From the IMG/VR virus record IMGVR_UViG_3300010355_000975: 33,266 nt of DNA. One strand, 5' to 3'. Each line of letters begins with the position of its first letter. The stretch's first letter is position 1. The DNA comes from a virus. Lineage: Duplodnaviria; Heunggongvirae; Uroviricota; Caudoviricetes. Shown here one piece after another: positions 606-30,966 of the stretch. A model generated the notes under the pieces. The model saw only the letters and a list, made by a program, of their open reading frames with translations, had not been told where the DNA came from and did not search any database. The position numbers and the translations under genes were made by a program.

Positions 606-1038
606 GAACCATATCCTCATTTAAAATTACTAAACTTAAATCACATAAACAATCATAATAAACATAAGCTGTATCTCGAAATACTTGATAAAAAAGAATT
701 TGAATCTCGTAAATATTTTCCTCAATGTATTTCCATAAAATGTGTTGTGTTCCAGAAATCAACAAAACTCTTGGGTCAATTCCATTTCTGGCATAATACA
801 ATAATTTAACATGACAAAATGGTAATAGATATTCTGATAAACCATTTATTCTATATGTACGAATATATCTGTCTTGATCATCGGTTGATTTGATTAAATT
901 TAATTCTTTTTCTAAAATAATCTCTGTGCCTAATTTTGTCCCCAATTCAAAATCGGGTTTTAATGAATACTGTTGGAAACTAATAACATCATTATTTCCA
1001 TTTTTATAATCTACGTCAATTTGTTTAAAATATTTCAT
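595..1038 (-). CDS. hypothetical protein downstream of the tail-tip gene
   Basis: 147-aa ORF coupled to the 1235-aa gene by a TAATG overlap; no recognisable motif. Confidence 0.7.
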   Translation of the reverse strand: MKYFKQIDVDYKNGNNDVISFQQYSLKPDFELGTKLGTEIILEKELNLIKSTDDQDRYIRTYRINGLSEYLLPFCHVKLLYYARNGIDPRVLLISGTQHILWKYIEENIYEIQILFYQVFRDTAYVYYDCLCDLSLVILNEDMVHVC

Positions 1039-4000: not shown

Positions 4001-4745
4001 CAGATGCGCCATCATATCCATAATAAATATAAATATCAGTATCAATTAAAGATGATACTTCAGGGACTTTAACTTTATAATGCCCAACCTCATTAATACT
4101 ATCATGAACTCGTCGTTCAAATTTTAATAAGGTTATTTCATCAGAAGCAGTAAAAATAACATCATCACCACTCGCCAACGCCTTAGTAAAATCAAATGTA
4201 TCAGCATCCAAAAAAACATCTAAATCAAAATTAGCTAATGCTGGATTAATAGATTCAAATGACTTAAATTCTGTAACTTGAGCATAATTTCCACCTGATG
4301 TTGACGTAATATATAAGCGATAATACCTATAAGCAGTAGTATTATTGAAAGTATATGATTTAGGCGTATCATTTAGCCATGTTTCGCCAGTAACAGTATG
4401 TAAAACTGTCCAATCACTATCATCATTACTACCTTCAAATGTAAAATTAACCAATTTAGCATTGGCATCGGCAACTCTAGGTGTAATCTCAAATTTAGTT
4501 GCTATTTTAGTTACTCCACTGCCCAAATCATATTTCAACCAAACCGGCAATGGCCCACTTGTGGAACTTGTCCACCAAGTGCCGGTATTAATATCAAAAG
4601 CATTGGAAGCTACATCGCCGCCCTGTGAAGAACTTGCAGACGCACTTCCTCCGCTAAATATCGTTGATGTATATGAAATAGGAACATCGTTTGCCGATAT
4701 AGTTATCTTTTTTCGATATAAATAATTTGGATTATACCAAGACAT
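1038..4745 (-). CDS. multidomain tail-tip protein: DUF2341-like with inserted F5/8-type C (discoidin) domain, LamG/ConA-like lectin, repeats, beta-propeller-like segment, probable C-terminal hub (Tal-like) region
   Basis: WYNPNYLYRKKITI...FDFTKALASGDDVIFT...DTDIYIYYG (DUF2341-like); AFDINTGTWW...WLKYDLG...EGSNDDSDW...YRYYRLYI (F5/8C); QDFDGGDYI...DFTISFLVY...WYRMFVTRNG...GLMDEVKIS (LamG). Lies downstream of the tape measure and Dit-like genes. The hub call is inference. Confidence 0.75.
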   Translation of the reverse strand: MSWYNPNYLYRKKITISANDVPISYTSTIFSGGSASASSSQGGDVASNAFDINTGTWWTSSTSGPLPVWLKYDLGSGVTKIATKFEITPRVADANAKLVNFTFEGSNDDSDWTVLHTVTGETWLNDTPKSYTFNNTTAYRYYRLYITSTSGGNYAQVTEFKSFESINPALANFDLDVFLDADTFDFTKALASGDDVIFTASDEITLLKFERRVHDSINEVGHYKVKVPEVSSLIDTDIYIYYGYDGASDLSDPTNVYDSYFKAVLSLDQSGDGSVGEFLDSTANNHDGQGGAGTPGAVPTQVAGLINKAQDFDGGDYISLPDSADWDWATSDFTISFLVYFDSVSGYQCFLGRPTSGSSYLYLAKEGSNIRFRDYNGGPDMSAGWSPSISTWYRMFVTRNGSNFKIYANNTLILSASSAKSFIARDVPLQIGANSAISYFVNGLMDEVKISVGIDRGDTYRVVELLSETDDLLSFSSEETNPNDLFFNLNESIIWNEELSSDITIQLDESIIWNEENQSFGNEFFTIDESIIWNEVVDEKISTKIIFDVDESIVWNDEKSEDISINLDESVVWNEESQATIPQGTANYASKIISVNPLIFVTDTIPAKITKVDTTDPDNVTWSAVSIIGLNNANDVVYNSQNGYLYIGGANGKVAKILLNDLSDQTIIDLSDTDNITLVNGYFANGFIFAVTDKSTEEIYTIDERDTFFIDNNFSYLQENKFFIDNQLNFTEAFFIDNKFPYLYENKFFIDNTLTWLEDTPVEIIPIGQEDFKVYLDDVELLPGDLKLDDITITHTIDSTSSAVFKLARRHDDIDKTIAGATSIISNQNNVKIYIKDNLEIDGTIAKTDLTYDRSGEIVSVSILADEPDSNKKSINLGMPGLNEYRTLFHIISCNETIENPVMDERLIIVNQNSRYWSGTEWVFRKNQAMFFNDYDSANSYYNSVSVYNQKFWKSEPKITNAEENPIVYTGVIADLGDKIEQNVIRLVSLSSDLDEYNNQTLRTLPNWAYFWFIRVRDFIRGIEMATSRYVGTSPFAIVSKTFKSLALTHRRQRELPDIITKMGTYSVGKPPYLEFSKASGRLITKDKWIDESDGLYRHRDAGYNYTAYLKKLVNLEYEKLQNINGDVLPITSANINISLNAYYFYALKLLTRINIVNTINPTIFTKENGFPIAIKSITIKSSDMVVSLSCDNQKTRSELEAIVDKEPDKEDYEYDEEHVLNFRKFDTNTFSDVE
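2478..2624 (-). repeat. 4 coding repeats of FFIDN (12-14 aa period)
   Basis: FFIDNNFSYLQENK FFIDNQLNFTEA FFIDNKFPYLYENK FFIDNTLTW; DNA unit ttatcaataaaaaa recurs on the plus strand. Confidence 0.85.
3018..3290 (-). repeat. 5 coding repeats of (D/N)ESI(I/V)WN(E/D)E
   Basis: LNESIIWNEE, LDESIIWNEE, IDESIIWNEV, VDESIVWNDE, LDESVVWNEE; DNA unit ttcattccaaataat.gattc recurs. Confidence 0.9.
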
Positions 4746-11426: not shown

Positions 11427-12662
11427 TTATAAATTACCCTGTATTTTGGTAATTAATAAATTATCGCTTGACAATGAACTAGAATTTGTTCCATTTGCAT
11501 TAGCTGAAAAATCAGCAGGAGTATCATCGCCCAAAGAAGCATTTTCTACTTTATACCCCATAACAAATTCCGTTTTTAATGCATTGGAAAAAATCTCAAC
11601 AATTACATCAACTTCTGCCAATGTACTATAATCAATAATACCCCAATCCTCCCCTGCTTGACCAGCACATGCTTCCTGAAGTAAATAATTCTTTACAAAT
11701 TGGTCAATTGAAATAGATACATCATAGCTTTCTGTGTCTTTTAATTTTTCAACAGTACCAATAACTGCCTGATTTGTGCGATTAAATGATGCAGAAATAG
11801 AAAAACTTGTTGCCTTATCTAAAACCAGCGGAGTATGTGTGCCATCATCAATAGTAATGGTAACATTTTCAGATGATAAATAATAAGCATCTTCATCATT
11901 TAATGCTTGAGGATCACCCGCTGAACCATAACTACTAGCTGAATACCAAATTCGATAATGATCGCCTGTTGAAGCGGCTAAAACAGTAAGATTATTTGTC
12001 ACATTGCTATATGTATAATCGGTTGTTAAAGATAATAATTCTGCTTCACCATCACGAATACGATACAATTTTAAAATGTATACACTAGTATTAGGGTCAA
12101 TAACTGGCACAGGATCATCTAAAGTAATAACATAAGAACCATCTGTTCCAGAAGGCGCATCATTCGTTTTAAAAATAATGCATTTATTTGCATTTCTCGC
12201 AATTTTGGCATACTCCCCGGCAAATTCAAACGATCTTTCAATTTGATCGTCGGCATTAATAGCAATTTCGAAAGAATTTAACGCCATATTTTCTGTCCAT
12301 AATGTTTGCTCTAATGTACCGCCATACCGCTCTTTACCCGGACAAATAAAATCAAGTCTTGGCGCATCAAAATCATCTAACTCAAACCCGCCACTTGGTT
12401 CAGCCAACAATCCAGACAATTGCAAAAATGAATCAATTTCGCCATATTCAAACTGTGTCATAGACGCTGTAGCTTCTAAAATTTGTCGGTGCGTAGTCAT
12501 TTTATCTCTGCGACCAAGCTCGTATAATTTTTCTTCAGGTTGAGTCGTTGTAGCCGTAAAAGACTGAACACGATCCCAATTTGCCATGTCCACATCTGCT
12601 AAAACCGGGACTGAAATAGGTTTAAAAGCAGAAGCATGTCTAATTTCTCTTTGTACTGTCAT
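11427..12662 (-). CDS. major tail (tube) protein
   Basis: 411 aa, beta-rich, with WDRVQSFTATTTQPEEKLYELGR typical of tube proteins; precedes chaperones/TMP and is followed by a hairpin as expected for a highly expressed gene. Confidence 0.8.
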   Translation of the reverse strand: MTVQREIRHASAFKPISVPVLADVDMANWDRVQSFTATTTQPEEKLYELGRRDKMTTHRQILEATASMTQFEYGEIDSFLQLSGLLAEPSGGFELDDFDAPRLDFICPGKERYGGTLEQTLWTENMALNSFEIAINADDQIERSFEFAGEYAKIARNANKCIIFKTNDAPSGTDGSYVITLDDPVPVIDPNTSVYILKLYRIRDGEAELLSLTTDYTYSNVTNNLTVLAASTGDHYRIWYSASSYGSAGDPQALNDEDAYYLSSENVTITIDDGTHTPLVLDKATSFSISASFNRTNQAVIGTVEKLKDTESYDVSISIDQFVKNYLLQEACAGQAGEDWGIIDYSTLAEVDVIVEIFSNALKTEFVMGYKVENASLGDDTPADFSANANGTNSSSLSSDNLLITKIQGNL

Positions 12663-13425: not shown

Positions 13426-13875
13426 CTAAATTAATGAATCAAGTTGAGCAATAGCATCTTCTATATAATGCATTGCCGGAATCGGTGTTTGTGGTTTTAA
13501 ACCAGAATAGCCATGTTCATCCTTTACAAATCGTCCATTTTCCCATCTTCCTTTTGGTAAATAATGACCCCAATTTGCACCAATACCTTCACTCCCCCAA
13601 TTTTGATGCCTCCAATATTTTGATTGTTGGTTTAATTCAGATACATCACCAACTGCCCAACCACCAACAATTGCATGAGCGGCCCACGCTGAACAGTTTG
13701 CTAGATTTCCTGTTCCACCAGCCGATTTATTTTCAATCATATATCTTACTAATGATTCAAATTTTTCAGCAATATCTTGTAAAACACTATCACCAAATTG
13801 TTTTATTTCTTCTATTTCTTTTTCAACGGGTCTTGCTTCGCCAGTTGCATTTCTAAACACCATTTTTATTTTCAT
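13426..13875 (-). CDS. HK97 gp10-like neck/tail-completion protein
   Basis: GTGNLANC..., YWRHQNWGS, PIPAMHYIEDAI correspond to the TGxL, YxxxxExGT and PxxPFxxPA motifs of this family. Confidence 0.7.
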   Translation of the reverse strand: MKIKMVFRNATGEARPVEKEIEEIKQFGDSVLQDIAEKFESLVRYMIENKSAGGTGNLANCSAWAAHAIVGGWAVGDVSELNQQSKYWRHQNWGSEGIGANWGHYLPKGRWENGRFVKDEHGYSGLKPQTPIPAMHYIEDAIAQLDSLI

Positions 13876-14291
13876 TTATTACCTATTAAAAATAAAATAA
13901 CCTTTGTTTGATTAAACGCCAATTTAGTAAATAATACTTTATTTCCCAACCCCTTCTTCCAAACACTGTAAAATTGTTCATCATACTTAATTTTAGTAGC
14001 CATTTTTAAAGCATTTACGTCACAATTATCTATTACTGCTTCAATTGCTCCTACCTCTTGTAATCCCAATTCTCTATATACCAAACTTGATGTACTTACT
14101 GGTCTAACATATAATGCCTTAATTGGAATAGGGGATTGATCTTGTATTGTTTGCCCTTCATTTAAATAGGGGTCATAATTTTCCCCTTTAGTATTTAATC
14201 CCTTTAAATAAATCCAAAGTGTATCTCCATATTTAGAACGAAGATACTTTTTAACTTTCATCTGCGTTTTTAAAAATTCTTTATTCATCAA
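13872..14291 (-). CDS. head closure (stopper) protein
   Basis: 139 aa, beta-rich (YDPY...PIPIKALYVRP...ELGLQEVGAIE...KIKYDEQFYSV); immediately upstream of the gp10-like gene. Confidence 0.6.
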   Translation of the reverse strand: MMNKEFLKTQMKVKKYLRSKYGDTLWIYLKGLNTKGENYDPYLNEGQTIQDQSPIPIKALYVRPVSTSSLVYRELGLQEVGAIEAVIDNCDVNALKMATKIKYDEQFYSVWKKGLGNKVLFTKLAFNQTKVILFLIGNK

Positions 14292-14657: not shown

Positions 14658-14840
14658 TTATTCATCCGATCTCAAATTAATTTTGAACCGATCTTTAATA
14701 ATTAAATTGATACGAAAATCTCTATACAATTTTAAAAAAAGACCATATACAACAAACCCCTTAGTAATTCTATTTAATCCACAAAATCGATTTTGAACCC
14801 CATCTAAAATTCCTTTAGTGATTAAACTTAATCCATTCAT
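14658..14840 (-). CDS. small hypothetical protein with an internal LxxITKG repeat
   Basis: 60 aa; GLSLITKGIL / GLNRITKGFV; start overlaps the upstream stop. Confidence 0.6.
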   Translation of the reverse strand: MNGLSLITKGILDGVQNRFCGLNRITKGFVVYGLFLKLYRDFRINLIIKDRFKINLRSDE

Positions 14841-15388
14841 TGTAAAGTAACCTTGTATGAATTCATTTGACCATTTGTATAAGTGGACTCTAAAGCATAC
14901 ACCGCAAAAGCATTTTGGTCATTATCACAATCAGTTGCAGTATTATAGATTTTTATTAGACAACTTAATAATTGCCCACCACAATTATAAACTGGTGAAA
15001 AAATCCGATAATTTTCCTGCGATAATCCAAGAATACGTTTAGTTAATTCATAAATTTCATCAGTGTCAGTGTTCTTTGCATTTATTTCATCTTCCCAAGG
15101 AGAATTAGCGGCTGTGCTACAAAGAATTCGAATTAAATAAACTTCAAGTAAATCAGGAACTTCAAAATCATAATAATACACGCCTACTAAATCTACATTT
15201 TCACTCATTGCCATCTGTTTTGAAACCCATCCACTATCTTTAAATGTTTTATCTGCAAAATCATAAAAATAATTATCACTTTTTCTTTGTATTTGTAGAA
15301 AAACATTATCTAACCCAGATAAGAATTGATTATCTATATCAAGAGCAGATACCCATATTCTTTCAGTCGTGTTTTTCTTAACATACAT
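14837..15388 (-). CDS. putative virion structural protein
   Basis: 183 aa; GVYYYDF Ig-like N-terminal part and C-terminal RILGLSQENYRI...SYKVTLQ; within the neck cassette. Confidence 0.5.
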   Translation of the reverse strand: MYVKKNTTERIWVSALDIDNQFLSGLDNVFLQIQRKSDNYFYDFADKTFKDSGWVSKQMAMSENVDLVGVYYYDFEVPDLLEVYLIRILCSTAANSPWEDEINAKNTDTDEIYELTKRILGLSQENYRIFSPVYNCGGQLLSCLIKIYNTATDCDNDQNAFAVYALESTYTNGQMNSYKVTLQ

Positions 15389-15976: not shown

Positions 15977-16198
15977 TTATTCTCCTTGTATTAAATAACA
16001 TCCTAAAATTGCATCATAAATCATTGATCTATGAATAAATACATCATTTATATGATTAACAATAGTACTACCTGCAATTGCTTGTAAATTTTTTGCAGTA
16101 TTTACAACCCCAATATTCTCTGGATCATAAATTGATTTCCTCATTACATCTGATAAATTTGATTGTCTTGCTCCTTTTATATACATATTTATATCCAA
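15977..16198 (-). CDS. small fibre-associated protein
   Basis: 73 aa; DVMRKSIYDPENIGVV resembles the DMxKSxYDxxxxGxVD motif of phage fibre proteins. Confidence 0.55.
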   Translation of the reverse strand: MDINMYIKGARQSNLSDVMRKSIYDPENIGVVNTAKNLQAIAGSTIVNHINDVFIHRSMIYDAILGCYLIQGE

Positions 16199-18036
16199 TC
16201 AAATGATGATTTTTGTAAAACAATTTCGTCTATTTGCTGTTTAGTCGATTTTTTTTCAATAGATGATAATGTATATTCAGGTGTTGTTATTTTATGATTC
16301 TTTGGATTTATCAAAACTGATGTAATAGTGGCTATTAAATTTTTTTCACTTTGATCTGGATTAAAATCATTTGACGATTTTAAAGCATTGTTATTATCTA
16401 AATAAAAAAGTTTATTATATTTTCTAGCCGATAATTCCATTAATGCCAATTTAATGTATTGAATCAATTCTGTATCGGAATAAGTTTCATAGTGTTGGTA
16501 TGTAATTAATACATCATCATTTTTTGATACAGTATTCAAAATAACGCTATTTGCCGAAGTATTATAGTAATAATCACCATCTAATAAAACATTGTTCTTA
16601 TACACTTTAATACTTGATTCACGAATAATCGAATTCTGTAATTTAAAACTATTACTAAAATCAGCTACATGATGTGTTTGTCCAGTAACTAATGTATCAT
16701 CAATTAAGATACGAATTATTTCTAATAAATCATCTATCTGTTCTTCACTTAAAACATCATAAATAAATGTAAGGACTTTTGATTCACTTTTCCGAACATT
16801 ATACTTAAAAATTAAATCTAAAAGAACAGATTCATAAACATTATATAAAAAGGTAAATTCTTTTGATACTGCTGTTCGAACATTATATTTAAAAATCAAA
16901 TGTTTTTGAATAATTCCACGAACATTGTATAAAAATCTAAAGGTTTTTTTTACAGCAGTTCTTATATTGTACTTAAATGTAAATGATTTGCGAATAAATT
17001 GGTTTGAATTATACACAAAAATTAAATTCTTACTAACCAATTGACCATTATTATAAATAAATTTTAAATCTTTTCTAAAAAATTGATTTGAATCATAAAT
17101 GAATTTCAAATCTTTTCGAACAACCTGCCCACTATTATAAACAAATATAAAATCTTTTCTAAAAAACTGATTTGAATCATAAACAAACGTCAAATCTTTT
17201 TTAACTGTTTGCCCACTATTATAAATAAATTTAAAAGAATTTTGGGCTGTTGTATAAACTGAATAATAAAAAGTTATATTTTTTCGAACAAAATTATAAA
17301 CAGAATACAAAAATGTTAAATCTTTAGAAACCGTTTGACCGTTATTGTAAATAAATTTTAAATCTTTTCGAACCTGCTTTGAAATAAGAAATTCAGAAGT
17401 AGGTGGCGTAAAATTTTCTGTATAAATTGCCTCATTGTCCAAAATTCTAAGTTCATCTATGCGCCCCGGAAAAACTCTACTAGAAGCACCAGCGTCATGC
17501 CCAACATACAAAGTACCATAAGTGGCTGTTAAATTTAATGGAACAGTTAAAACATCCCCCAACCGATTACCGTTAATAAAAAATCGAAGACTTGTACCAT
17601 CTTTACAGGCCGCTATATGATACCATTGATACAAAGTTGGTGCAAATCCAACTGTTGCAACTACTGTTCCAACTCCGTGCATGTAAAATCTCATGCTAGT
17701 TGTACTCATTAACCATTGAACTCCGCCGCCACTAATGGATGACATAAACATCATAGTAGAGCCGGGATTTTGAGTAAAATAAGCAAATAATTCAATAGTG
17801 AATTTAGTTGCAGAAAATCTTAATTTAGCATGGTTTGGAATACCAATACAATCTTGAGTTCCCGGCCCTCTTAATAATAATGAAGCTGAACCAAATTTCT
17901 TTTCTACTGTACTTATTTTTGCATTATCAAAGAACGTAACTGTATGCCCATACTGTGATCGATCTTCAACATATTGAGAATCATCATCGCCATTAAATGA
18001 TAACAATAAAGCTGTATTATTATATAAATCAGCCAT
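16189..18036 (-). CDS. LamG lectin + 14-aa repeat stalk + C-terminal copy of the head-tail adaptor (putative neck fibre)
   Basis: N-terminal LLLSFNG...KFGSASL...FTIELFAY...WYHIAACKDG...GRIDELRIL (LamG); 15 tandem 14-mers; the last ~184 aa align with the 18639..19250 protein. Confidence 0.85.
   Translation of the reverse strand: MADLYNNTALLLSFNGDDDSQYVEDRSQYGHTVTFFDNAKISTVEKKFGSASLLLRGPGTQDCIGIPNHAKLRFSATKFTIELFAYFTQNPGSTMMFMSSISGGGVQWLMSTTSMRFYMHGVGTVVATVGFAPTLYQWYHIAACKDGTSLRFFINGNRLGDVLTVPLNLTATYGTLYVGHDAGASSRVFPGRIDELRILDNEAIYTENFTPPTSEFLISKQVRKDLKFIYNNGQTVSKDLTFLYSVYNFVRKNITFYYSVYTTAQNSFKFIYNSGQTVKKDLTFVYDSNQFFRKDFIFVYNSGQVVRKDLKFIYDSNQFFRKDLKFIYNNGQLVSKNLIFVYNSNQFIRKSFTFKYNIRTAVKKTFRFLYNVRGIIQKHLIFKYNVRTAVSKEFTFLYNVYESVLLDLIFKYNVRKSESKVLTFIYDVLSEEQIDDLLEIIRILIDDTLVTGQTHHVADFSNSFKLQNSIIRESSIKVYKNNVLLDGDYYYNTSANSVILNTVSKNDDVLITYQHYETYSDTELIQYIKLALMELSARKYNKLFYLDNNNALKSSNDFNPDQSEKNLIATITSVLINPKNHKITTPEYTLSSIEKKSTKQQIDEIVLQKSSFDWI
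16744..17373 (-). repeat. 15 tandem 42-bp (14-aa) coding repeats
   Basis: Exactly 630 nt = 15 x 42; consensus about V.KDLxFxY(N/D)xxQx, e.g. VRKDLKFIYNNGQT, FRKDLKFIYNNGQL, VSKEFTFLYNVYES. Confidence 0.95.
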
Positions 18037-18038
18037 AT

Positions 18039-18629
18039 TTATTCCACATCAGTATCCCATTCTGTTGAAATTGTACCACTAATGCCAGAGCGAGCCGGAC
18101 TACCTGCTAAAAACATTCTTTTAATCCATACAAAAATTATTTCATTCGAATCTAAATCATCGTCGTGTGACCCCTGATCGGGTGATACACCTGTTTGTTT
18201 CGTCATACCAGTTACCCAATTAGAAATTCCACTCCCTGTACCATTATGATTAGTGGTATTAACAACGGGCGATGTAATTTCATCCACAACTGTTTGTGCA
18301 GAACCATCAGTTAAAGCGGCTGTTTCAGGCACTTCAATTGCATAAGCTATTTGTTGAGCATTATCAGGATCATACTCTGCACTCCACCAAGCAACTAAAT
18401 TATGCGCTGTTTCTAGTGAAGTATTTTTTAAACAAACACAACGATAATCTGTATACCCGGCAGATGCTTCGGCTGATTTAATGACTCTAAATAAATTGTG
18501 CAATGTATTTGACGTAAATTCAGTAGAACTTCGAAATCCACCTAATGATAAATTTGGGTCTGATTGCGTACCACCATCCGAATCAGCACCAGTTAAATAA
18601 ATTTTGACTTGATCTGCTTGAACAGGCAT
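18039..18629 (-). CDS. conserved uncharacterised virion protein
   Basis: QSDPNLSLGGFRSST...LHNLF...AEASAGYTDYRCVCLKN, a pattern I recognise from phage structural modules; SD AAGGAG. Confidence 0.6.
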   Translation of the reverse strand: MPVQADQVKIYLTGADSDGGTQSDPNLSLGGFRSSTEFTSNTLHNLFRVIKSAEASAGYTDYRCVCLKNTSLETAHNLVAWWSAEYDPDNAQQIAYAIEVPETAALTDGSAQTVVDEITSPVVNTTNHNGTGSGISNWVTGMTKQTGVSPDQGSHDDDLDSNEIIFVWIKRMFLAGSPARSGISGTISTEWDTDVE

Positions 18630-18638
18630 TTTTTCTCC

Positions 18639-19250
18639 TTAATACAAATTTGTATTATCTGTATCATTTGATAAAAAACGTGTTTCACCATAGCATTGTG
18701 TAAATGATAAAAACACTAAATCAATTAATTCCATTCTACTCTTATGTTCAGTTGATTCAATAGTATATTCAGGTGTTCGAATTTTTTGATTTTGAGGATC
18801 GATTAAAATAGCTGTAATAGTAGCTATTAAATTTCCTTCTCTATCTGTTGGATTAAGACCATTAGATGTAACTATTTCATCAGAAGAATTAAGATAAAAT
18901 AATTTACTATACCTACGTCTACTTAATTCTAAAAATGATGCCTTTATCCAATTTTTAATTTGTGTATCAGAATAAATGTTATAATAACTGTATAAAATTA
19001 CAATAGCATCTCCTTTAGTAAGTGATGCAGTAATTATAACAGCATTTAAATCAGAATTATAAGTATAACCTGTGGTTAATAATGAACCATTCTTGTATAC
19101 TTTAATGGCGGACGATGACACATTTTGATGTGATAAATAAAATACATTATCGGAATCATATTCACAAAAGGTTCTTCCATCACTTTGTAAATTATCATCA
19201 ATTTGTATTCGGATTAAATCAATTAATGTATTTATCGTAAATTGTGCCAT
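18639..19250 (-). CDS. head-tail adaptor (connector) with an inserted beta-sandwich
   Basis: First gene after the major capsid gene; LIDLIRIQIDD...YSDTQIKNWI is the typical helical adaptor pattern. Confidence 0.7.
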   Translation of the reverse strand: MAQFTINTLIDLIRIQIDDNLQSDGRTFCEYDSDNVFYLSHQNVSSSAIKVYKNGSLLTTGYTYNSDLNAVIITASLTKGDAIVILYSYYNIYSDTQIKNWIKASFLELSRRRYSKLFYLNSSDEIVTSNGLNPTDREGNLIATITAILIDPQNQKIRTPEYTIESTEHKSRMELIDLVFLSFTQCYGETRFLSNDTDNTNLY

Positions 19251-19298: not shown

Positions 19299-20300
19299 TT
19301 AGCTAATTAAATTAACATAAGTATCGGCTTTTTGATAAGCGGCAAAACATTTCGGATTTGTAACAGCCGCACCAAACGAACCAACCGTAATAATCTTGTA
19401 AGCTAACGTAGGAACTGCACCAACCATATGAACATCAAGGTCTTTTGCGAAGATTGCTCTTTCTTTTGCATCTGTATTCACAGGAATTCTTCGACGAGCA
19501 AAAATGGCCGGTCTATTTTTCTGTGAATCGCTAGTTGCTACAAGCAAGGCCCTATCAGTTGGCATAACGGTTTGTGTTCCAGAATGAGTAAACTGATAAT
19601 TCTCGACAGAAATAACTTTGTTAATACCCGCTTTGGCAGGTACAAGTTCACGATTCTTGTCTTCAAAATAATCCATCAATTTAATGTCCCTAGATACATC
19701 AGAACCGGCAATCAAAACTAGATTATTCTTTCCATATTTTGCCAAACTTGCACCCATATCAACTAATACAGGAAAAGTAATTACTGAAGAACCAGAAACA
19801 TTAGTAAATACATTTTTTTCATCTTCGGCGGCGGCAAAATACAAATCAATAAGAGCCTTCTGTTCTAATCTGTTCAATGCTTCATATTGATCAGCGGCCT
19901 TTTCAGCTAAAGAATCATATTTCTGTGTCAACATGCTGTTAATAGTAAGATAATCTTCAGGAGCGGCATATACATCAAGAGCCAATGTAGTAGGAGTCTT
20001 AGGAGTAACTGGAACCTGTGTTACAACACCAGCAGAAATAGTATAAACAGTTTTAGCATTGACATCCTGAACAAAATACTCAACTGTCATACCCGGCATA
20101 ACTGACTTGTATTCAGCAGTATCAGCACCAACATCATTTACAGGAAGTTCGGCATCATAAGGTTCATTCATTAATTCAGTAACCATTTGAGCTGATAAGA
20201 AAGAACTTTTACTACCATCCTGAATAGCGGCGGCTAGTTCAAGTACTTTAGCATCATACTCTTTTTGCACCTGTGCTTCTAGCATAATCTTTTTCATCAA
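19299..20300 (-). CDS. major capsid protein (HK97 fold)
   Basis: 333 aa directly after protease/scaffold; SD AAGGAG (TTG at 20300 or ATG at 20297); followed by a hairpin. Confidence 0.8.
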   Translation of the reverse strand: MMKKIMLEAQVQKEYDAKVLELAAAIQDGSKSSFLSAQMVTELMNEPYDAELPVNDVGADTAEYKSVMPGMTVEYFVQDVNAKTVYTISAGVVTQVPVTPKTPTTLALDVYAAPEDYLTINSMLTQKYDSLAEKAADQYEALNRLEQKALIDLYFAAAEDEKNVFTNVSGSSVITFPVLVDMGASLAKYGKNNLVLIAGSDVSRDIKLMDYFEDKNRELVPAKAGINKVISVENYQFTHSGTQTVMPTDRALLVATSDSQKNRPAIFARRRIPVNTDAKERAIFAKDLDVHMVGAVPTLAYKIITVGSFGAAVTNPKCFAAYQKADTYVNLIS

Positions 20301-21846: not shown

Positions 21847-23523
21847 TTAATCCTTCTTATTTAAAACCCATTTTCCAGATTTATTCTGGTGAGCAATTTT
21901 TGAAATAGTAGCCCATGCCTTTTTAAAAGCAATTTCTTCACTATCACCATTTTTTAACGCATTATTAACTACTTGCATAAAAATCTTTTGAAGCCTATTT
22001 CCCATATTATTTTTGACTGAATCAGGAAGTTCAGATGTTTTAGAATAAGGGGCCTCTAAATACTCACCTAATTCCTTTTCAATAACTTCACCCAATTCAG
22101 TAATTAAATCATCTTCTAATTCATCCATTGCTTGATTAGCTTTATCAACATCTTCCTGAATTTGAGTAGCATTTTTATAATTGACTACTTCAGGAGTATT
22201 TTTCTTTTTATCATCTGGTGTAGTATTATTAGATGTATCGTTTTGCCCATTATCTAAATTTTGCACAACCCTAGGAAACATTCTTAAATCTAACTTTTCT
22301 TTTCGTTCTCTATCTCGTTCTTTTACTTGACGTTCAAATAATAATCCAGTAGTATTTTCTAATCCACTCTTATCACCAACTAATCCTCTATCATACCATG
22401 AACGAATAAGTGCTTTATCATCTTTAGTTAAAAATGCTTTAATAACTCCGGGTTGTACAATTGCTTTATCGTTCACATTATATTTAGAAGAATTTTTTTC
22501 TTGAATCATTTTAACAACGGTTTGCAATAAATCTTTATAATCAAGAACAGCATCTTCTACTTCTTCTACTAAAACCTTTGGATTTAAAATAGCTTCTTCT
22601 CTTGTCGAAGAAAATCCTTTTAATTCAATCATTCCCATAGCACTTAATAATGCTTGGTCAATTGGTTTAGTAATTTTTTCATCTAAAATTTTTCCAAAAT
22701 CAGGAATCAATTCTTCAATTTTAAAATGGTAAGGATACGCACCAACAACCGCACTACTCTTATCTTTTTTTGATTCATCTTCGTATTTAGTTGCTATGTC
22801 CTTAAAATCTTGTGGTTGTGGTACAATGTTTTTACTTGTTAATTCGGGAGAACCTAATTTTAAAAGCAATTGATATGGAAAAGATGTTACAAGCATTTTA
22901 TTCTGATGCTCAATAACTTTAATTTTTCGCAATGCATGATCCAACGCCCCTCTTTTTACTAAATAAGGCATTGGATATAATTTATATTGTTGATTATATG
23001 GTTTTCGAATTAAGACACTGGTAGTATCAGTATTATCTAATAAATTATTTTCAGAAATTTTTCTAATGTAATACTTTACAGTATCTAACCGATTTTCTTT
23101 ATTCGTCGCATACACATTTGCCCCATCTAAAAACCACATCTTCATGGGCAATAAATAACCATTATATTTTTCCCAAATCATTCGCAAAACAATAAACGAA
23201 CTTGTCCATCGTTCCCGATAATACTGTTCAGAAACAGATCGCAATCCCCAAGGTATATCAATATTAACATCTTTATTAACGTTTTCTTTCCAATAATTTA
23301 ATAACTCAACCATACCTGTTTTTGTAGCATCAAAATCAATTGGAACATTTGCCGCTCTAATCATAAAATCCATAATTGGAGAAATAATAGCTGTTCTATC
23401 ATTATTTAATAAATCATTCACTTGTTTCATTTGCTCATGGTATTTATTTGATACCTTGATATCAACTGAAAAAGTATTTAATTGATTTATTAAATGCGAT
23501 AATAAAAGGTCTGTTTCTGTCAT
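21847..23523 (-). CDS. portal protein with C-terminal ChaB domain
   Basis: 558 aa between TerL and protease (positional portal call); the last ~67 aa (PYSKTSELPDSVK...AFKKAWATI...GKW) match ChaB. Confidence 0.8.
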   Translation of the reverse strand: MTETDLLLSHLINQLNTFSVDIKVSNKYHEQMKQVNDLLNNDRTAIISPIMDFMIRAANVPIDFDATKTGMVELLNYWKENVNKDVNIDIPWGLRSVSEQYYRERWTSSFIVLRMIWEKYNGYLLPMKMWFLDGANVYATNKENRLDTVKYYIRKISENNLLDNTDTTSVLIRKPYNQQYKLYPMPYLVKRGALDHALRKIKVIEHQNKMLVTSFPYQLLLKLGSPELTSKNIVPQPQDFKDIATKYEDESKKDKSSAVVGAYPYHFKIEELIPDFGKILDEKITKPIDQALLSAMGMIELKGFSSTREEAILNPKVLVEEVEDAVLDYKDLLQTVVKMIQEKNSSKYNVNDKAIVQPGVIKAFLTKDDKALIRSWYDRGLVGDKSGLENTTGLLFERQVKERDRERKEKLDLRMFPRVVQNLDNGQNDTSNNTTPDDKKKNTPEVVNYKNATQIQEDVDKANQAMDELEDDLITELGEVIEKELGEYLEAPYSKTSELPDSVKNNMGNRLQKIFMQVVNNALKNGDSEEIAFKKAWATISKIAHQNKSGKWVLNKKD

Positions 23524-25178
23524 TTTTTACACTCTGTAGATGTTAATCCCCAACATACTTTTATATTAAAATTCTGTTTTAAAATTTTCTGTTCATTGAA
23601 AAATCTGCAAATAGCCCACGTTTGCCATGCCTGAATCAAGTGATTTTCGCCCTTTGACCCATATTGAATTTTACCTTTATTACTAGATGCCAAAACGTTA
23701 GTAAATTGGTTTTCAAATTTTGGATCATTCGGAATTTCAACATCACTACTATATAACATTCTTTCTAATTCTTTAAAAGACCAATCTTCACAATTATGTT
23801 TTTTAAAAATTGGATCACCGTTGTTGTCCGTTTTTACAACATCATTACCATATCCATCTTTTTCAATTTCAAACCCAACTTCAATATTTTCATTAAACCG
23901 CACTTTTAATAAATGTTCCTCTGGAATTCCCATTTTAAATAAACGATCAATCATTGCTCCTGAATCTGATGTTGAATCTAAAGCTATAAATGCACTGCCT
24001 AACTTATCATATAAATATTTAATTATTTCTGGCTGTTCTTCAGGAGTCAATCGAAGCAATGAAATATTATAAACATATTTATATTTTTTTCCATCATAAA
24101 AAACTATAATTAATTCAGTTGGAGCCGCACCAAATCCCAAATCACCACATATAAAACATTGTTCTGCACCAATCATTCTTTCGACAATTAAAATGTTTTC
24201 ATAATTCGTAAAATTGTCTTTTGATACTTCTAAAAATTTAACTCGGGAATGATTTTTAAAACTAGCTTCTTTTAACCGCTTCATATCAAAAAAACCAAAT
24301 GCACCCTCAATTGTTTTTGCCTCAACATTTAATAAATATTGTGGTGTAGTTTTACCACCATATTCTTCTGCTTTTTCTTCTTCAATTTTATTTGACCAAT
24401 CTGCCCGAACATATTGTGGCAATTGCCAAATCCAATTTTTTAAAGCCTTATTTTGTAAAATCTTTCCCAATGGTGAACCAACACATAAATCTGGTATTCC
24501 AGACGGGCGTTCAATGTGCCCATAAGACATACCAGAATCAACGCTTTTTAATTGTCCTTCAATCGTGGCATAACTATATTCTTCATAAAACCTTATCTCA
24601 TAATGTTTTGAATGAAATTGCACACCCGGATTATCACCATCAACCTGTTCATTTACAGCATATCCTTTGCACCCATGTTCGGTTGTAATTGTTAAAGGGT
24701 CACGCTTTGCACAATTTGTTCTACCATCTCTAGGATGAAAAATTTGTAAAAATTTATGACTTTCAACATATGAGGCAATAGGGTCACAAACTTTTTTTAA
24801 TTTTTCAGCAGAACAAGAAGCAACACATATTTCCTTAAAACCAAAAATAATTGCTAATAAAGAATCAATAATAAGCCACAGCGACTTTCCTGTATTACGA
24901 CTACCAATCATGTAACAATCGCCAGCACCTTTTTGAATTCTAAAATTATCTTCTTTTTCGAGATTAGGATCATCCGCATACATATATGAATAATTCTGAA
25001 TTGCAAATTGATAATCTCTAATAGTAATTGTTGGAGAATTTTCATTCCATGTTTGAGGAGCATTTAAATTTGCAGGAATCAAACATTCTGTCATAGCTGT
25101 TGGATCATAAAAAAATTCTAAAAATTCTATCTCCTCTTCTGTTAAAGGATTACGATCAACCATTTTTATTTTTTCCAA
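23520..25178 (-). CDS. terL: terminase large subunit
   Basis: RDYQ adenine-binding motif, Walker A SRNTGKS, Walker B-like IRFYEE, coupling motif SGIP, RNase H-like nuclease acids CGDLG and ALDST; upstream of the portal. Confidence 0.9.
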   Translation of the reverse strand: MEKIKMVDRNPLTEEEIEFLEFFYDPTAMTECLIPANLNAPQTWNENSPTITIRDYQFAIQNYSYMYADDPNLEKEDNFRIQKGAGDCYMIGSRNTGKSLWLIIDSLLAIIFGFKEICVASCSAEKLKKVCDPIASYVESHKFLQIFHPRDGRTNCAKRDPLTITTEHGCKGYAVNEQVDGDNPGVQFHSKHYEIRFYEEYSYATIEGQLKSVDSGMSYGHIERPSGIPDLCVGSPLGKILQNKALKNWIWQLPQYVRADWSNKIEEEKAEEYGGKTTPQYLLNVEAKTIEGAFGFFDMKRLKEASFKNHSRVKFLEVSKDNFTNYENILIVERMIGAEQCFICGDLGFGAAPTELIIVFYDGKKYKYVYNISLLRLTPEEQPEIIKYLYDKLGSAFIALDSTSDSGAMIDRLFKMGIPEEHLLKVRFNENIEVGFEIEKDGYGNDVVKTDNNGDPIFKKHNCEDWSFKELERMLYSSDVEIPNDPKFENQFTNVLASSNKGKIQYGSKGENHLIQAWQTWAICRFFNEQKILKQNFNIKVCWGLTSTECKK

Positions 25179-27264: not shown

Positions 27265-27477
27265 CTAAATTTTTTCTAATTCATTACAAGAGCGAACATC
27301 TTTTATTCCACCCGGTAAACAAATTGTGTATGATTCATCATGGAAAAATTTATAATCTGATCTTATTCCTAAACCATTAACATATAATAATCCAATAACT
27401 TGAGCATTTTGTTTAGTAACTAAATCAAAGACATATTCGCCTATATCAAAAGAAAAATCAAAGGTGTATTTAGCCAT
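27265..27477 (-). CDS. hypothetical protein (70 aa, MAKYTFDFSFDIGEYV...)
   Basis: Track ORF 27265..27534; SD GGAG precedes the ATG at 27477, which overlaps the ligase stop region. Confidence 0.7.
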   Translation of the reverse strand: MAKYTFDFSFDIGEYVFDLVTKQNAQVIGLLYVNGLGIRSDYKFFHDESYTICLPGGIKDVRSCNELEKI

Positions 27478-28372
27478 TTTCTTCTCCAAAAGATTTTTTT
27501 GCCAAATATTCTTTATACCATTCAGATAAACCACGTGTTGCTGTTTTCAAAACTTCTCTCCCAAATTCATTCCACAAAAAATCCTTTATATTTTCTTTTT
27601 CTTCTTCGGTTATATCCTCATTAACTCGTTTCATTAACAACCCGATGTCTTTGGGTGAATTATCCAACACACCGTTATCCCTTAGATAAAAAATTGCTTT
27701 TAACCAACGTGCTTCAGTGCAAAATCCTTCTTTATACACTTCCCATTTTCCTTTACCAGTATTTTCTCTACTCCAATTCTTTTGATGTACTTCTTTAAAT
27801 TCTTCAGAAACATATTTAGCACACAACAAAGGAATAATTCTATTATCTAATAAAATCTCTTTATTATAATTTTTAACAACAAATCCTTCAATTTTGGCTT
27901 TTCCTAAAACACTCTCTCGTTGCAACATTTCTTTTAATTGTTCAAAATTATTTATTTTACCTTTAAAAAGAATCGGTACTGTTTCCAAATTTAATAAATC
28001 GGCATATTTATAATAATCAAAAATAAATTTACCATTTTCATAACATGCCCCAAAAAGAATTATATTATTTTTTGGGACTCTACCATAGCAAAGAACATTA
28101 TGTTTTTCTTTTTGTAAATATTCCCCATAAAACATTATTCCATTTGGTAAACTCGATTCAATAGATTTTATATAATCAATGCCTTTAGAAAATAATTTAT
28201 CTGGACAATCAACTTGTTGAATAATACCTTTACTTCGAACAATTAAGGTATTATTTATTTTACCAAACCCAATTTGCGATCCATCAATTTTTTCCGTGAT
28301 TTCAACATCTGAATCAAAAATGTTTTGTACCCATCGCTGACCAACTGTAAAAATTTTTGGAAAAGCATTCAT
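27470..28372 (-). CDS. ATP-dependent RNA ligase (Rnl2-like)
   Basis: Nucleotidyltransferase motifs: I TEKIDGSQ, III FYGEYL, IIIa LFGA, IV IEGFVVK, V AKYVSEEFKE. Confidence 0.85.
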   Translation of the reverse strand: MNAFPKIFTVGQRWVQNIFDSDVEITEKIDGSQIGFGKINNTLIVRSKGIIQQVDCPDKLFSKGIDYIKSIESSLPNGIMFYGEYLQKEKHNVLCYGRVPKNNIILFGACYENGKFIFDYYKYADLLNLETVPILFKGKINNFEQLKEMLQRESVLGKAKIEGFVVKNYNKEILLDNRIIPLLCAKYVSEEFKEVHQKNWSRENTGKGKWEVYKEGFCTEARWLKAIFYLRDNGVLDNSPKDIGLLMKRVNEDITEEEKENIKDFLWNEFGREVLKTATRGLSEWYKEYLAKKSFGEENG

Positions 28373-28376
28373 TTCT

Positions 28377-28442
28377 TCACCTCGTATAATAATAATTTTT
28401 ATCCCGGCTTCTTGAATGGCTAAGGCACAAATAATCGCATAT
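28377..28442 (-). pseudogene. 3' remnant of a deaminase-like gene
   Basis: One frame reads ICALAIQEAGIKIII and the adjacent frame gives ICD...YYTR*; together this matches the CxxCxxAIxxAGIKxIxYT end of cytidine/dCMP deaminase-like proteins. Confidence 0.55.
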
Positions 28443-28478
28443 AATATTTAAAATTATAATTATATCAAAATTTATATT

Positions 28479-29105
28479 TTATTTAAATTTTTTAATATAG
28501 TTAATCATTTTTCTCAATACAAAAATATCTTCATTCATCAATCCTAAAACAGTGTTACATCTTGTACATAATAAACTTCTAACTTTATTATTTTTATGAT
28601 CGTGATCAACGGATAACATTTTAATTTTTTGAGTTTTAAAATTTTTTCTAGTTTCTTTTTGATTACAAATAAAACACTTATTATTTTGATTTTTTAACAT
28701 TTCTTTATAAGTTTTTAAATTAATATTATATAAATGTTTTAATTCATTATTCTTTAATTTTTCTTTCGTTCGTCCACCACGCCATAAATGATGTTCCTTT
28801 CCTTTTTTAAAACGCTGACAACCACAAGATTTGAGATTTCCACTTTTTAAATTATATGATGGGCCCTTTATATAATTTCCACAATCACATTTACAAACCC
28901 ATGCTATTCTATTATTTTCTTGTTGAAAAGCGCCGATAATAGTTAAATGACCAAATCTGCATCCAATTAAATTTGTTATTGGTTTACACATTTGTCCTGT
29001 TTTATATCGATATAACATCATACATGACTTACATAAACCAGAACCATATGCGCCAGATGTTATTGAAATGGGTTTATTACAATTTTTACAATAATATTTT
29101 TTCAT
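28479..29105 (-). CDS. free-standing homing endonuclease, endonuclease VII-type HNH
   Basis: CFIC...LSVDHDHKNNKVRSLLCTRCNTVLG (EndoVII), plus LIGCRFGHLTII...WVCKCDCGN...SCGC and GKEHHLWRGG accessory motifs typical of phage homing endonucleases. Confidence 0.85.
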   Translation of the reverse strand: MKKYYCKNCNKPISITSGAYGSGLCKSCMMLYRYKTGQMCKPITNLIGCRFGHLTIIGAFQQENNRIAWVCKCDCGNYIKGPSYNLKSGNLKSCGCQRFKKGKEHHLWRGGRTKEKLKNNELKHLYNINLKTYKEMLKNQNNKCFICNQKETRKNFKTQKIKMLSVDHDHKNNKVRSLLCTRCNTVLGLMNEDIFVLRKMINYIKKFK

Positions 29106-29209
29106 ATTTTATTTTTCCGATCTACAATAATTGCACAAATATTTTGCTTTTTATTATTTATTACTGTAGATAATTCAATTGCTTTATTTAAAATTTTTTT
29201 ATTCATCAT
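29102..29209 (-). pseudogene. 5' remnant of a deaminase-like gene (35 aa)
   Basis: MMNKKILNKAIELSTVINNKKQNICAIIVDRKNKI* resembles the N-terminal helix and GAVIVD strand of deaminase-like proteins; its TGA overlaps the endonuclease ATG (ATGA). Confidence 0.55.
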
Positions 29210-29363
29210 AAATAGTCCACTCATATGTTAAAACATCATCTTTTGTTAATTGTAATGGTCTAACAAATCTCCAGGTATTACCTTCTATAATTATTTTCTT
29301 TCGTAATCTTTTTCCATTTAAATAAATTTTTAAATTATTCCAAAAATCAATCCTCGGAGTCAT
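29199..29363 (-). CDS. small hypothetical protein (54 aa)
   Basis: Track ORF 29199..29411; SD GAGGAG precedes the ATG at 29363 (MTPRIDFWN...). Confidence 0.6.
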   Translation of the reverse strand: MTPRIDFWNNLKIYLNGKRLRKKIIIEGNTWRFVRPLQLTKDDVLTYEWTIYDE

Positions 29364-29647
29364 AAAATTTTCTCCTCTCTTAACTGATAAATTAATCTTC
29401 CTCTTGCACAATCATTACATAATACATTATAAGCAGTTAAATAATTAAGTAAAACTTTTTCTCTTAATTCAATGGAGTAACAACCTAAAATATCCCTACA
29501 ATTAATTAATGTTCGATTATATTCATCTCTAAGAATTAAATTTTGTCTTTTTTCAATCAGTGTATAATATTCTCCACTTTTATCCAGATAAGTTTCGCCA
29601 ACATATTTTCCGGGCATTATTTCTTTTACATTAATATATTTGTCCAT
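29360..29647 (-). CDS. hypothetical protein
   Basis: 95-aa ORF, tightly packed, one CxxC. Confidence 0.65.
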   Translation of the reverse strand: MDKYINVKEIMPGKYVGETYLDKSGEYYTLIEKRQNLILRDEYNRTLINCRDILGCYSIELREKVLLNYLTAYNVLCNDCARGRLIYQLREEKIL

Positions 29648-29648
29648 T

Positions 29649-30200
29649 TCAGTCCATCCAATTTTGATAGTTAGATTTTAAAAGTTTCCAAAAATATTCT
29701 TTTTCATGCTCATATTGTAATTTATCTTCTTTATCTGCTCTCCTAAATGCTTTCTTATTTACAAAATCTCTTGAAATGTCTAATACCCAATTTGGTTCAT
29801 AAATTTCATAATACATTTTTCTATTAGTATCATAGTTATCTTCGTGTAATCGTTTAGCTAATTCGCAACAAATTCTTAATTTTCTCATCCTAGTATTATT
29901 TGAATTACTATTCCATTGAAGATGGCCATATTCTTCGCAATACTTAATAAATTTTTTTAACTTTAAATAAACATATAAATAATACCCAAACTCAAATTCC
30001 CACTCATAATGTTTTCTAAATTTCCAACCCCAATAAAAAAATCTACATAATGACTCATATGGCACAATAATTAAATCAGTATATAAATCATATAGATCAT
30101 TTAATAAATCCCACCATTTTTCTTGAATAGTGGATTTAGGATGCATTAAGTGTCTAATTAATTTACTACCAAATAAAAGTTTTCGAATTTTTCTAATCAT
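29649..30200 (-). CDS. hypothetical protein (aromatic-rich)
   Basis: 183-aa ORF overlapping the MTase end. Confidence 0.75.
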   Translation of the reverse strand: MIRKIRKLLFGSKLIRHLMHPKSTIQEKWWDLLNDLYDLYTDLIIVPYESLCRFFYWGWKFRKHYEWEFEFGYYLYVYLKLKKFIKYCEEYGHLQWNSNSNNTRMRKLRICCELAKRLHEDNYDTNRKMYYEIYEPNWVLDISRDFVNKKAFRRADKEDKLQYEHEKEYFWKLLKSNYQNWMD

Positions 30201-30966
30201 TTTTTATTCTTTCTTCAGCGATTTTACAATATTTTTGGTCTTGTTCAATTAAAATAAAATTTCGATTTAAATTTTTACAAGCTACTCCTGTTGTTCCACT
30301 TCCAGCACAATTGTCTAAAACTAAATCGCCTTCATTGGTGTAGGTTTTGATTAGGTATTCAAAAAGGGCTACTGGTTTTTGGGTGGGGTGAAGTTTTCCT
30401 CGTTGCTCCCTAGAAAAATAAATAAGTTGTTTGGGAAGCAGTTTATCTGGTTCGTAATTTTTACCATGATAATTTTGTGTTTCGTTCATCTTGGTTTCTT
30501 TCCAAGATTCGCCCATCACTTCTTTGACGTTTTTAGTTATTTTTGATGGGTTTCGGCTCAAGTGTCTTTTAGAAATTCCCCGAGGATTGATTTCTTTTTG
30601 TGGATTATATGTTGGTTGTTTATTTAAAAACACACTGATAATTTCTAAAATCTTCAAAGGCATTTTATTTCCAAATAAAAAATTTGCGGCTTTATCTTTT
30701 TGCCAATACCAATCATAGTTAAATTGTTCTAAATTACTTAATCTTAGTTTACTCGAAAACGGTTCATTACCGCAAAGAAGAACGGCTCCACTGTCTTTAA
30801 TAATCCTCTTATATTGTTCCCAAAGAGGTTCAAAAGGAATAATAGTATCCCACTTACAAGCTGTTGTACCATACGGCAAATCACACAGAATCATATCAAT
30901 AGACTTATCAGGAATAGACTTCATCAACTCTAAGCAATCGCCCAATCTTAAATCTATCATAGCCAC
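30193..30966 (-). CDS. orphan DNA N6-adenine/N4-cytosine methyltransferase (beta class)
   Basis: Catalytic motif DLPYG, then HPTQKPVAL, then SAM-binding LDNCAGSGTT; no restriction gene is adjacent in the window. Confidence 0.92.
   Translation of the reverse strand: MAMIDLRLGDCLELMKSIPDKSIDMILCDLPYGTTACKWDTIIPFEPLWEQYKRIIKDSGAVLLCGNEPFSSKLRLSNLEQFNYDWYWQKDKAANFLFGNKMPLKILEIISVFLNKQPTYNPQKEINPRGISKRHLSRNPSKITKNVKEVMGESWKETKMNETQNYHGKNYEPDKLLPKQLIYFSREQRGKLHPTQKPVALFEYLIKTYTNEGDLVLDNCAGSGTTGVACKNLNRNFILIEQDQKYCKIAEERIKND

Follow-up and report, generated by a model that had tools for sequence, protein, structure and literature searches.

Lectin fibers at the phage neck and paralogues of the head-tail adaptor are each already known; a covalent anchor made from a duplicate of the adaptor was not found in the literature covered. 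Adaptors of the SU10/T7 subtype combine a helix bundle, a fiber dock, and a portal-binding element (PMC9509320), and SU10 gp11, the T7 gp11 type, and T5/DT57C p144 share a helical bundle with an inserted beta domain (PMC9509320, PMC11313276; PDB 7Z47, 8HQO, 9ILP). In SU10, fibers attach at the adaptor ring. Fibers with a distal carbohydrate-binding module also hang from the adaptor-position ring gp5 of Anabaena phage A-1(L) (PMC10966104). Rings R1-R5 of crAss001 (PMC10172136; PDB 7QOJ, 7QOG) are adaptor-fold paralogues, composed of helices plus a beta-sandwich, that stack as dodecamers on which fiber hubs dock. The neck passage structures of the lactococcal 936 group and TP901-1 (PMC6669499) are non-essential neck appendages with a carbohydrate-binding end that act as auxiliary adhesins. 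The locus described here shares the adaptor fold and the inserted beta domain with these systems, and would resemble them further in its predicted ring stacking, its lectin-tipped appendage at the neck, and its putative role as an auxiliary adhesin. It lies in a 33,266-nucleotide stretch from an uncultured wastewater phage of the Caudoviricetes (IMG/VR record IMGVR_UViG_3300010355_000975), the whole of which we call the window, and encodes a LamG domain, a repetitive stalk, and a second copy of the adaptor within one 615-amino-acid (aa) protein.

The window is a minus-strand structural operon of a long-tailed phage. Open reading frames (ORFs) of 203, 196, and 615 aa follow the probable capsid gene in that order, all on the minus strand, as described in an earlier note made from the sequence alone. 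The features central to the analysis are as follows.

18639..19250, minus strand: 203-aa protein, very likely the head-tail adaptor (AlphaFold 2 model, structural matches, synteny)
18039..18629, minus strand: 196-aa protein, phrog_13135-like, probable stalk partner (homologues before stalk or LamG-like genes in relatives)
16189..18036, minus strand: complete 615-aa fusion ORF
17386..18036, minus strand: LamG/concanavalin-A-like N-terminal domain, fusion residues 1-217 (PF13385)
16753..17385, minus strand: stalk of 15 x 14-aa repeats (repeat analysis, beta-solenoid model)
16189..16752, minus strand: adaptor copy, fusion residues 429-615, with truncated C-terminal tail (BLASTP, alignment, trees)

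By BLASTP, residues 429-607 of the fusion match residues 1-181 of the 203-aa protein at 81/181 identical positions (45%, E 2e-45). The earlier note had aligned the two along their length; the homology stands and all six motifs that it quoted occur in both proteins, but the match is not full-length, with adaptor residues 182-203 having no clear counterpart. Its description of an adaptor copy fused to a LamG-tipped beta stalk is borne out. The fusion is real: JGI and Logan assemblies contain an identical 615-aa protein on 10 contigs, and in a 2025 run from a separate study a variant contig with 8 base differences crosses the stalk/copy junction without a gap, while a further contig covers the stop codon of the copy, both at low depth. 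Given its presence in several assemblies and in the 2025 strain variant, misassembly is ruled out as the origin of the fusion. Runs containing the window are mostly activated-sludge metagenomes; runs X5 and X6 contributed small shares only and were left out of the analysis.

The tip of the fusion matches LamG (PF13385) at residues 61-200 (E 8.6e-19; 68.6 bits versus a curated cut-off of 27.6) and is predicted to bind glycans. In the full-length structural model, this part scored below 50 in predicted local distance difference test (pLDDT) and was not used. The stalk consists of a 14-aa repeat in 15 units (residues 222-431) with a 28-aa double period; self-identity peaks at lags 14 (0.41) and 28 (0.49) and does not exceed 0.11 at other lags. 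A monomer model (pLDDT about 55-70) forms a beta-solenoid, 28 residues to the turn, that matches SufB/SufD-type beta-helices at Z scores of about 11-13. Beta-helices rise by ~4.8 Å per turn. The modeled stalk would probably extend ~4 nm, or ~7 nm if three chains intertwine, making it a short arm and no long fiber. Homologues of the 196-aa protein precede stalk or LamG-like genes in related loci L001, L021, L029, L035, L049, L068, and L100, and the protein is the probable partner of the stalk. The 196-aa and 14-aa-repeat genes together form a cassette whose tip is exchangeable: the window has LamG in this place, L029 and L035 a glycine-rich tip. PDB and Atlas searches returned no relative of the stalk or the 196-aa protein. 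A weak homologue of the latter (28%, E 1e-4; L104 5001-5549) sits in the neck gene region of Schizotequatrovirus Vibrio phages, in the interval between tail terminator and small terminase.

The AlphaFold 2 model of the 203-aa protein (pLDDT 83) comprises helices at residues 6-16, 95-111, 136-150, and 172-187, a hairpin at 156-165, and a beta fiber-dock domain inserted at ~19-90. Full-length comparison in VIA matched the adaptors of A4 (Z 8.7, root-mean-square deviation [rmsd] 4.0, 104 residues aligned), KHP30 (8.7, 5.5, 116), Pa223 (8.6, 3.8, 102), GP4 (8.6, 3.5, 108), SU10 (7.9, 4.0, 101), and P22 gp4 (7.1, 3.5, 105), with Sf6 within the same 7.1-8.7 range. The whole-length phage matches, which also include DEV, Mu, and one crAss ring (overall Z 5-8.7), are all adaptor-position neck proteins. 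The dock fits the SU10/T7/T5 subtype, as residues 24-90 superpose on DT57C adaptor residues 46-111 (Z 8.2, rmsd 1.8, 64 aligned); the T5/DT57C adaptor is also the top Foldseek match of the model, and the Atlas match is the SU10_adaptor cluster (template modeling score 0.67). The beta domain structurally resembles fiber N-termini, tailspike XD domains, and collar proteins. A conserved F/G/F motif occupies the C-terminus and, by analogy with P74-26 (PMC12407722), may bind the portal. Across 46 relatives, the adaptor gene lies between the probable capsid and stopper genes, themselves assigned by position, and in many it adjoins a stopper-type gene directly. Sequence searches of Pfam, PHROGs, and the PDB gave the 203-aa protein no adaptor name, with one family member matching a head-tail adaptor PHROG (E 0.005), and a comparison of the adaptor with cultured phages found no match. 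The assignment is strong because the moderate structural matches agree and because the gene directly precedes a stopper-type gene in many relatives. Judged by its model, the 203-aa protein is very likely the working head-tail adaptor of the phage, of the SU10/T7/T5 subtype.

Phylogenetically, the copy falls inside a six-sequence clade with the window's adaptor (support 100/100), and a tree without the copy there is rejected by the approximately unbiased (AU) test (p-AU 0.012). Its terminal branch spans 1.3-1.6 changes/site, versus 0.41 for the resident adaptor (about a fourfold difference) and 0.09-0.17 for the sisters. This branch length, on a copy nested in its own clade, suggests that most of the divergence followed release from the adaptor role. 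Evidence on the term "duplicated," used in the earlier note, is divided: the copy belongs to the phage's own small clade, but is no closer to its own adaptor (45% identity) than to those of sister phages L001, L003, and L004 (49-50%). Private residues show no excess toward its own adaptor (8/38 shared, against 5/13 for L003), and a tree making the two sisters fits (AU p 0.38) without singling out that relationship. The copy arose either by duplication or by recombination with, or capture from, a sister phage; recombination is plausible because the downstream genes look like a distinct accessory block known from other relatives.

Neutral evolution on the copy branch (omega = 1) is rejected (likelihood-ratio test 25.3, p 5e-7) with synonymous divergence (dS) saturated, and owing to that saturation a two-ratio codon model is no better than one ratio (p 0.47). 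Changes in the copy fall preferentially outside conserved columns (Fisher p 0.010, Spearman p 4e-5), and during simulated neutral drift to only 75% identity the frame stays open in 0.7% of runs. These patterns indicate purifying selection on the copy, though with relaxed constraint. The idea that resident adaptor and copy co-evolved was considered separately and rejected, as trees of the stopper, HK97-gp10-like, terminator, and tube proteins likewise give the window the longer branch.

Retention differs by region. In the copy, helical core and hairpin are each 0.56 identical to the clade adaptors, the dock domain 0.42, and the last helix 0.33; in the C-terminal tail (columns 183-195), identity falls to 0.03. 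After the conserved I176, 13 residues remain in the copy versus at least 19 in all 56 other homologues. The modeled copy reaches pLDDT values mostly of 82-96 over residues 431-580, lower beyond, and matches the SU10, KHP30, and GP4 adaptors at Z 7.6-7.7. In gp6/gp15-type adaptors, subunits contact one another and face the stopper through their helices and hairpin. In P74-26, the C-terminal tail of the adaptor inserts into the portal clip (PMC12407722). Lacking the tail that binds the portal in solved adaptors, the copy is hardly a full adaptor; on regional identity, as opposed to mapped interface residues, it looks like a ring-compatible subunit without portal grip. The earlier note was very likely right that the 203-aa gene encodes an adaptor, given the consistent structural matches to phage adaptors, and the copy keeps the fold signature of helical bundle, dock domain, and hairpin under purifying selection. 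The note had named loss of the ring/portal interfaces, together with absence from virions, as refuting its reading; half of this is borne out, the portal-binding tail being gone. Complex prediction with two adaptors and one copy scored 0.01, which counts neither for nor against co-assembly.

The genes surrounding the fusion set the terms for comparison with relatives.

19299..20300, minus strand: probable major capsid protein, 333 aa (position and synteny only)
15977..16186, minus strand: 69-aa orphan ORF, start 2 nucleotides past the fusion stop codon
15418..15972, minus strand: 184-aa DUF2793 protein with fiber-like N-terminus
14658..15388, minus strand: 183-aa and 60-aa genes, a pair also found ahead of the 124-aa-type gene in L007, L022, L028, L047, and L058
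14281..14655, minus strand: 124-aa beta protein, located between adaptor and stopper in most close relatives
13872..14291, minus strand: probable stopper, 139 aa (position and conserved synteny only)

The interval from adaptor to stopper is a variable slot, holding between nothing and 6.8 kb of fiber-like genes across 46 loci. In the closest relative, L001, the adaptor is followed by a 194-aa gene and a 468-aa LamG stalk protein that is 48% identical over fusion residues 1-429 (LamG part 58%, stalk 38%) and ends in a short beta tail just ahead of a 124-aa-type gene. Because L001 has the stalk unfused, the stalk predates the fusion, in which the adaptor copy took the place of the stalk's tail. 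In L003 (10625-11323), the N-terminal 155 aa of the 196-aa type are fused in frame to the C-terminal half of the 124-aa type, which looks like deletion of an entire LamG stalk gene. A weak BppU_N lead for the 124-aa protein comes from a single, distant member among 10 aligned proteins. By eye, a terminal alternating beta motif of the 60-aa ORF (14658-14840) resembles the tail of the L001 stalk protein; this ORF adjoins the 124-aa gene, likewise in L007, L022, L028, and L047. The 69-aa orphan and the 184-aa DUF2793 protein have in common a Cys-containing, 15-aa C-terminal motif (53% identical), possibly a shared anchor.

These observations suggest a sequence of events in which, in this one lineage, a LamG-plus-beta-stalk accessory gene lost its short C-terminal beta tail and was joined in frame to a second adaptor gene, itself a member of the small clade of the resident adaptor. 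The copy would then have evolved as a docking module, keeping the ring-packing core and hairpin and losing the portal-gripping tail. Retention of core and hairpin together with loss of the tail makes adaptor-adaptor contacts the most likely route into the neck, where the copy would hold LamG a few nanometers out as an auxiliary adhesin. We give about even confidence to this account, in which we infer ring incorporation, virion location, and glycan binding. A more specific version, with a tail-less paralogue in a mixed ring or in an extra ring between adaptor and stopper, covalently carrying lectin-tipped stalks, falls slightly short of that. Taken individually, a place for the copy as a minority subunit of the adaptor dodecamer is a tentative possibility, and an extra ring on the tail side is unlikely.

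The adaptor family tolerates both N- and C-terminal fusions, which we count in favor of joining through adaptor-adaptor contacts: in P0066 and P0093 the sole adaptor is preceded by an additional beta domain, and in P0023 and P0106 it is followed by a collagen-like or BppU-like segment. The N-terminal beta domains added to the sole adaptors of L019 (5058-5894) and L020 (1645-2493) look dock-like by eye. Several points weigh against the proposal. Saturated dS leaves omega imprecise, and true adaptors were in the alignment used to predict the fold of the copy. The copy keeps 30/39 conserved columns (0.77), the lowest of 57 sequences (median 0.95), which fits slow decay. The joint between head and tail could be weakened by a subunit lacking the C-terminal tail. 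The architecture was also seen in one lineage only: when 1.84 billion representatives were searched with an adaptor profile, 225 hits resulted, and among the best 150, a large N-terminal fusion to a full adaptor occurs in the window's protein only. A second adaptor is absent from all 46 distinct loci that cover the whole interval from adaptor to stopper. Of the word-based searches for longer homologues of the adaptor, one returned only the window's protein and another nothing, the latter being weak evidence since it overlooked even the fusion in the window; scanning viral contigs with single sequences gave no match. A single uncultured lineage, with component features each known separately, limits the weight that the case can bear.

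Alternatively, the copy might sit outside the DNA channel and dock on the neck exterior through its beta dock domain, with the dock domain of the adaptor, the 124-aa protein, or the 196-aa partner as possible counterparts, or might just oligomerize the stalk. The likeness of the beta domain to fiber N-termini, XD domains, and collar proteins is in keeping with such an arrangement, as are the binding of fibers by the SU10 dock domain (PMC9509320) and the replacement of a beta tail that in L001 sits just ahead of the 124-aa-type gene. If the dock alone mattered, however, the reverse of the retention pattern, or truncation past copy residue 90, would be expected, and it is the core and hairpin that are better kept. 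We regard a peripheral anchor as improbable.

Equally doubtful is that the copy is a tolerated passenger of illegitimate in-frame recombination, kept weakly for folding and for translational coupling to the downstream neck genes, while the stalk attaches by the 196-aa partner or not at all. Such an origin would suit the singleton distribution, the unrelated in-frame fusion in the same slot of L003, the accessory-block likeness of the downstream genes, the start codon 2 nucleotides beyond the stop of the copy, and the lowest conserved-site retention of the family. Yet with over one substitution per site the copy has acquired no stop, no indel beyond a few codons, and no domain deletion, its changes are biased to variable sites, and a useless 560-nucleotide segment could be deleted with coupling intact. 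Recent capture, whereby the copy diverged while it still served as the working adaptor of a fast-evolving, unsampled donor and was fused lately, so that the selection signal says nothing about the fusion, is very unlikely despite the slightly greater proximity to sister adaptors and the lack of excess private residues, as the clade's working adaptors have branches of 0.09-0.41 and all retain the C-terminal tail, and the GC and third-position GC contents of the copy (0.25, 0.15) are near those of the resident adaptor (0.26, 0.11).

Elsewhere in the window, the probable terminase (23520-25178) is 92% identical to that of L001 (L001 4041-5681) versus just 48% for the capsid proteins, suggesting recent module exchange; the L004 terminase contains an intein. 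The probable portal (21847-23523) has a C-terminal ChaB domain (E 5e-8), also present in L001, L003, and L004. In the 411-aa probable tail tube protein (11427-12662), a segment at ~206-242 is weakly similar to the adaptor beta dock domain and recurs in L001, L003, L006, and L098. A 1235-aa protein of the tail-tip region (1038-4745) combines F5/8 type C, DUF2341-like, and LamG domains with short internal repeats. Upstream of the packaging module, 27470-30966 encodes RNA ligase-like, endonuclease VII-like, and N6/N4 methylase genes. Promoter matches were barely above those in shuffled sequence (47 versus 38.8 +/- 6.8).

If the copy does join the neck through adaptor-adaptor contacts, the adaptor ring would tolerate heterologous, cargo-bearing subunits without portal grip, which would be one route for phages to gain neck appendages. 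The fusion would then be a recent, still recognizable (45% identical) example of how crassvirus-like multi-ring necks could begin, with the sister phage and its unfused stalk completing a natural before/after pair. In the literature covered, which was incomplete, no paper describes a duplicated adaptor joined to a lectin stalk or anchoring such an appendage.

The nearest comparison is the sister protein of L001/L021, which has the same order of adaptor, 194-aa gene, and LamG with 14-aa repeats, and differs in having one more repeat and a 20-aa beta tail with no adaptor copy. In the SU10/T7/T5 type, a separate fiber binds non-covalently to a single adaptor, whereas here a second adaptor is a covalent part of the appendage and is without the portal tail. 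A-1(L) differs in using separate trimeric gp82/gp81/gp80 on a 15-mer, and its distal module failed to bind the host in that study. The crAss001 paralogues are four standalone genes, conserved across the Crassvirales, in a short-tailed phage and with no lectin fusion, in contrast to one fused copy in one long-tailed lineage. The 936/TP901-1 structures run from an N-terminal BppU-like collar through a coiled-coil stalk to a C-terminal module, whereas the fusion reverses this order, with a beta-repeat stalk and an adaptor-copy anchor. By its proposed way of working, the fusion is comparable to a neck passage structure, and perhaps to a crAss ring, but is a member of neither group.

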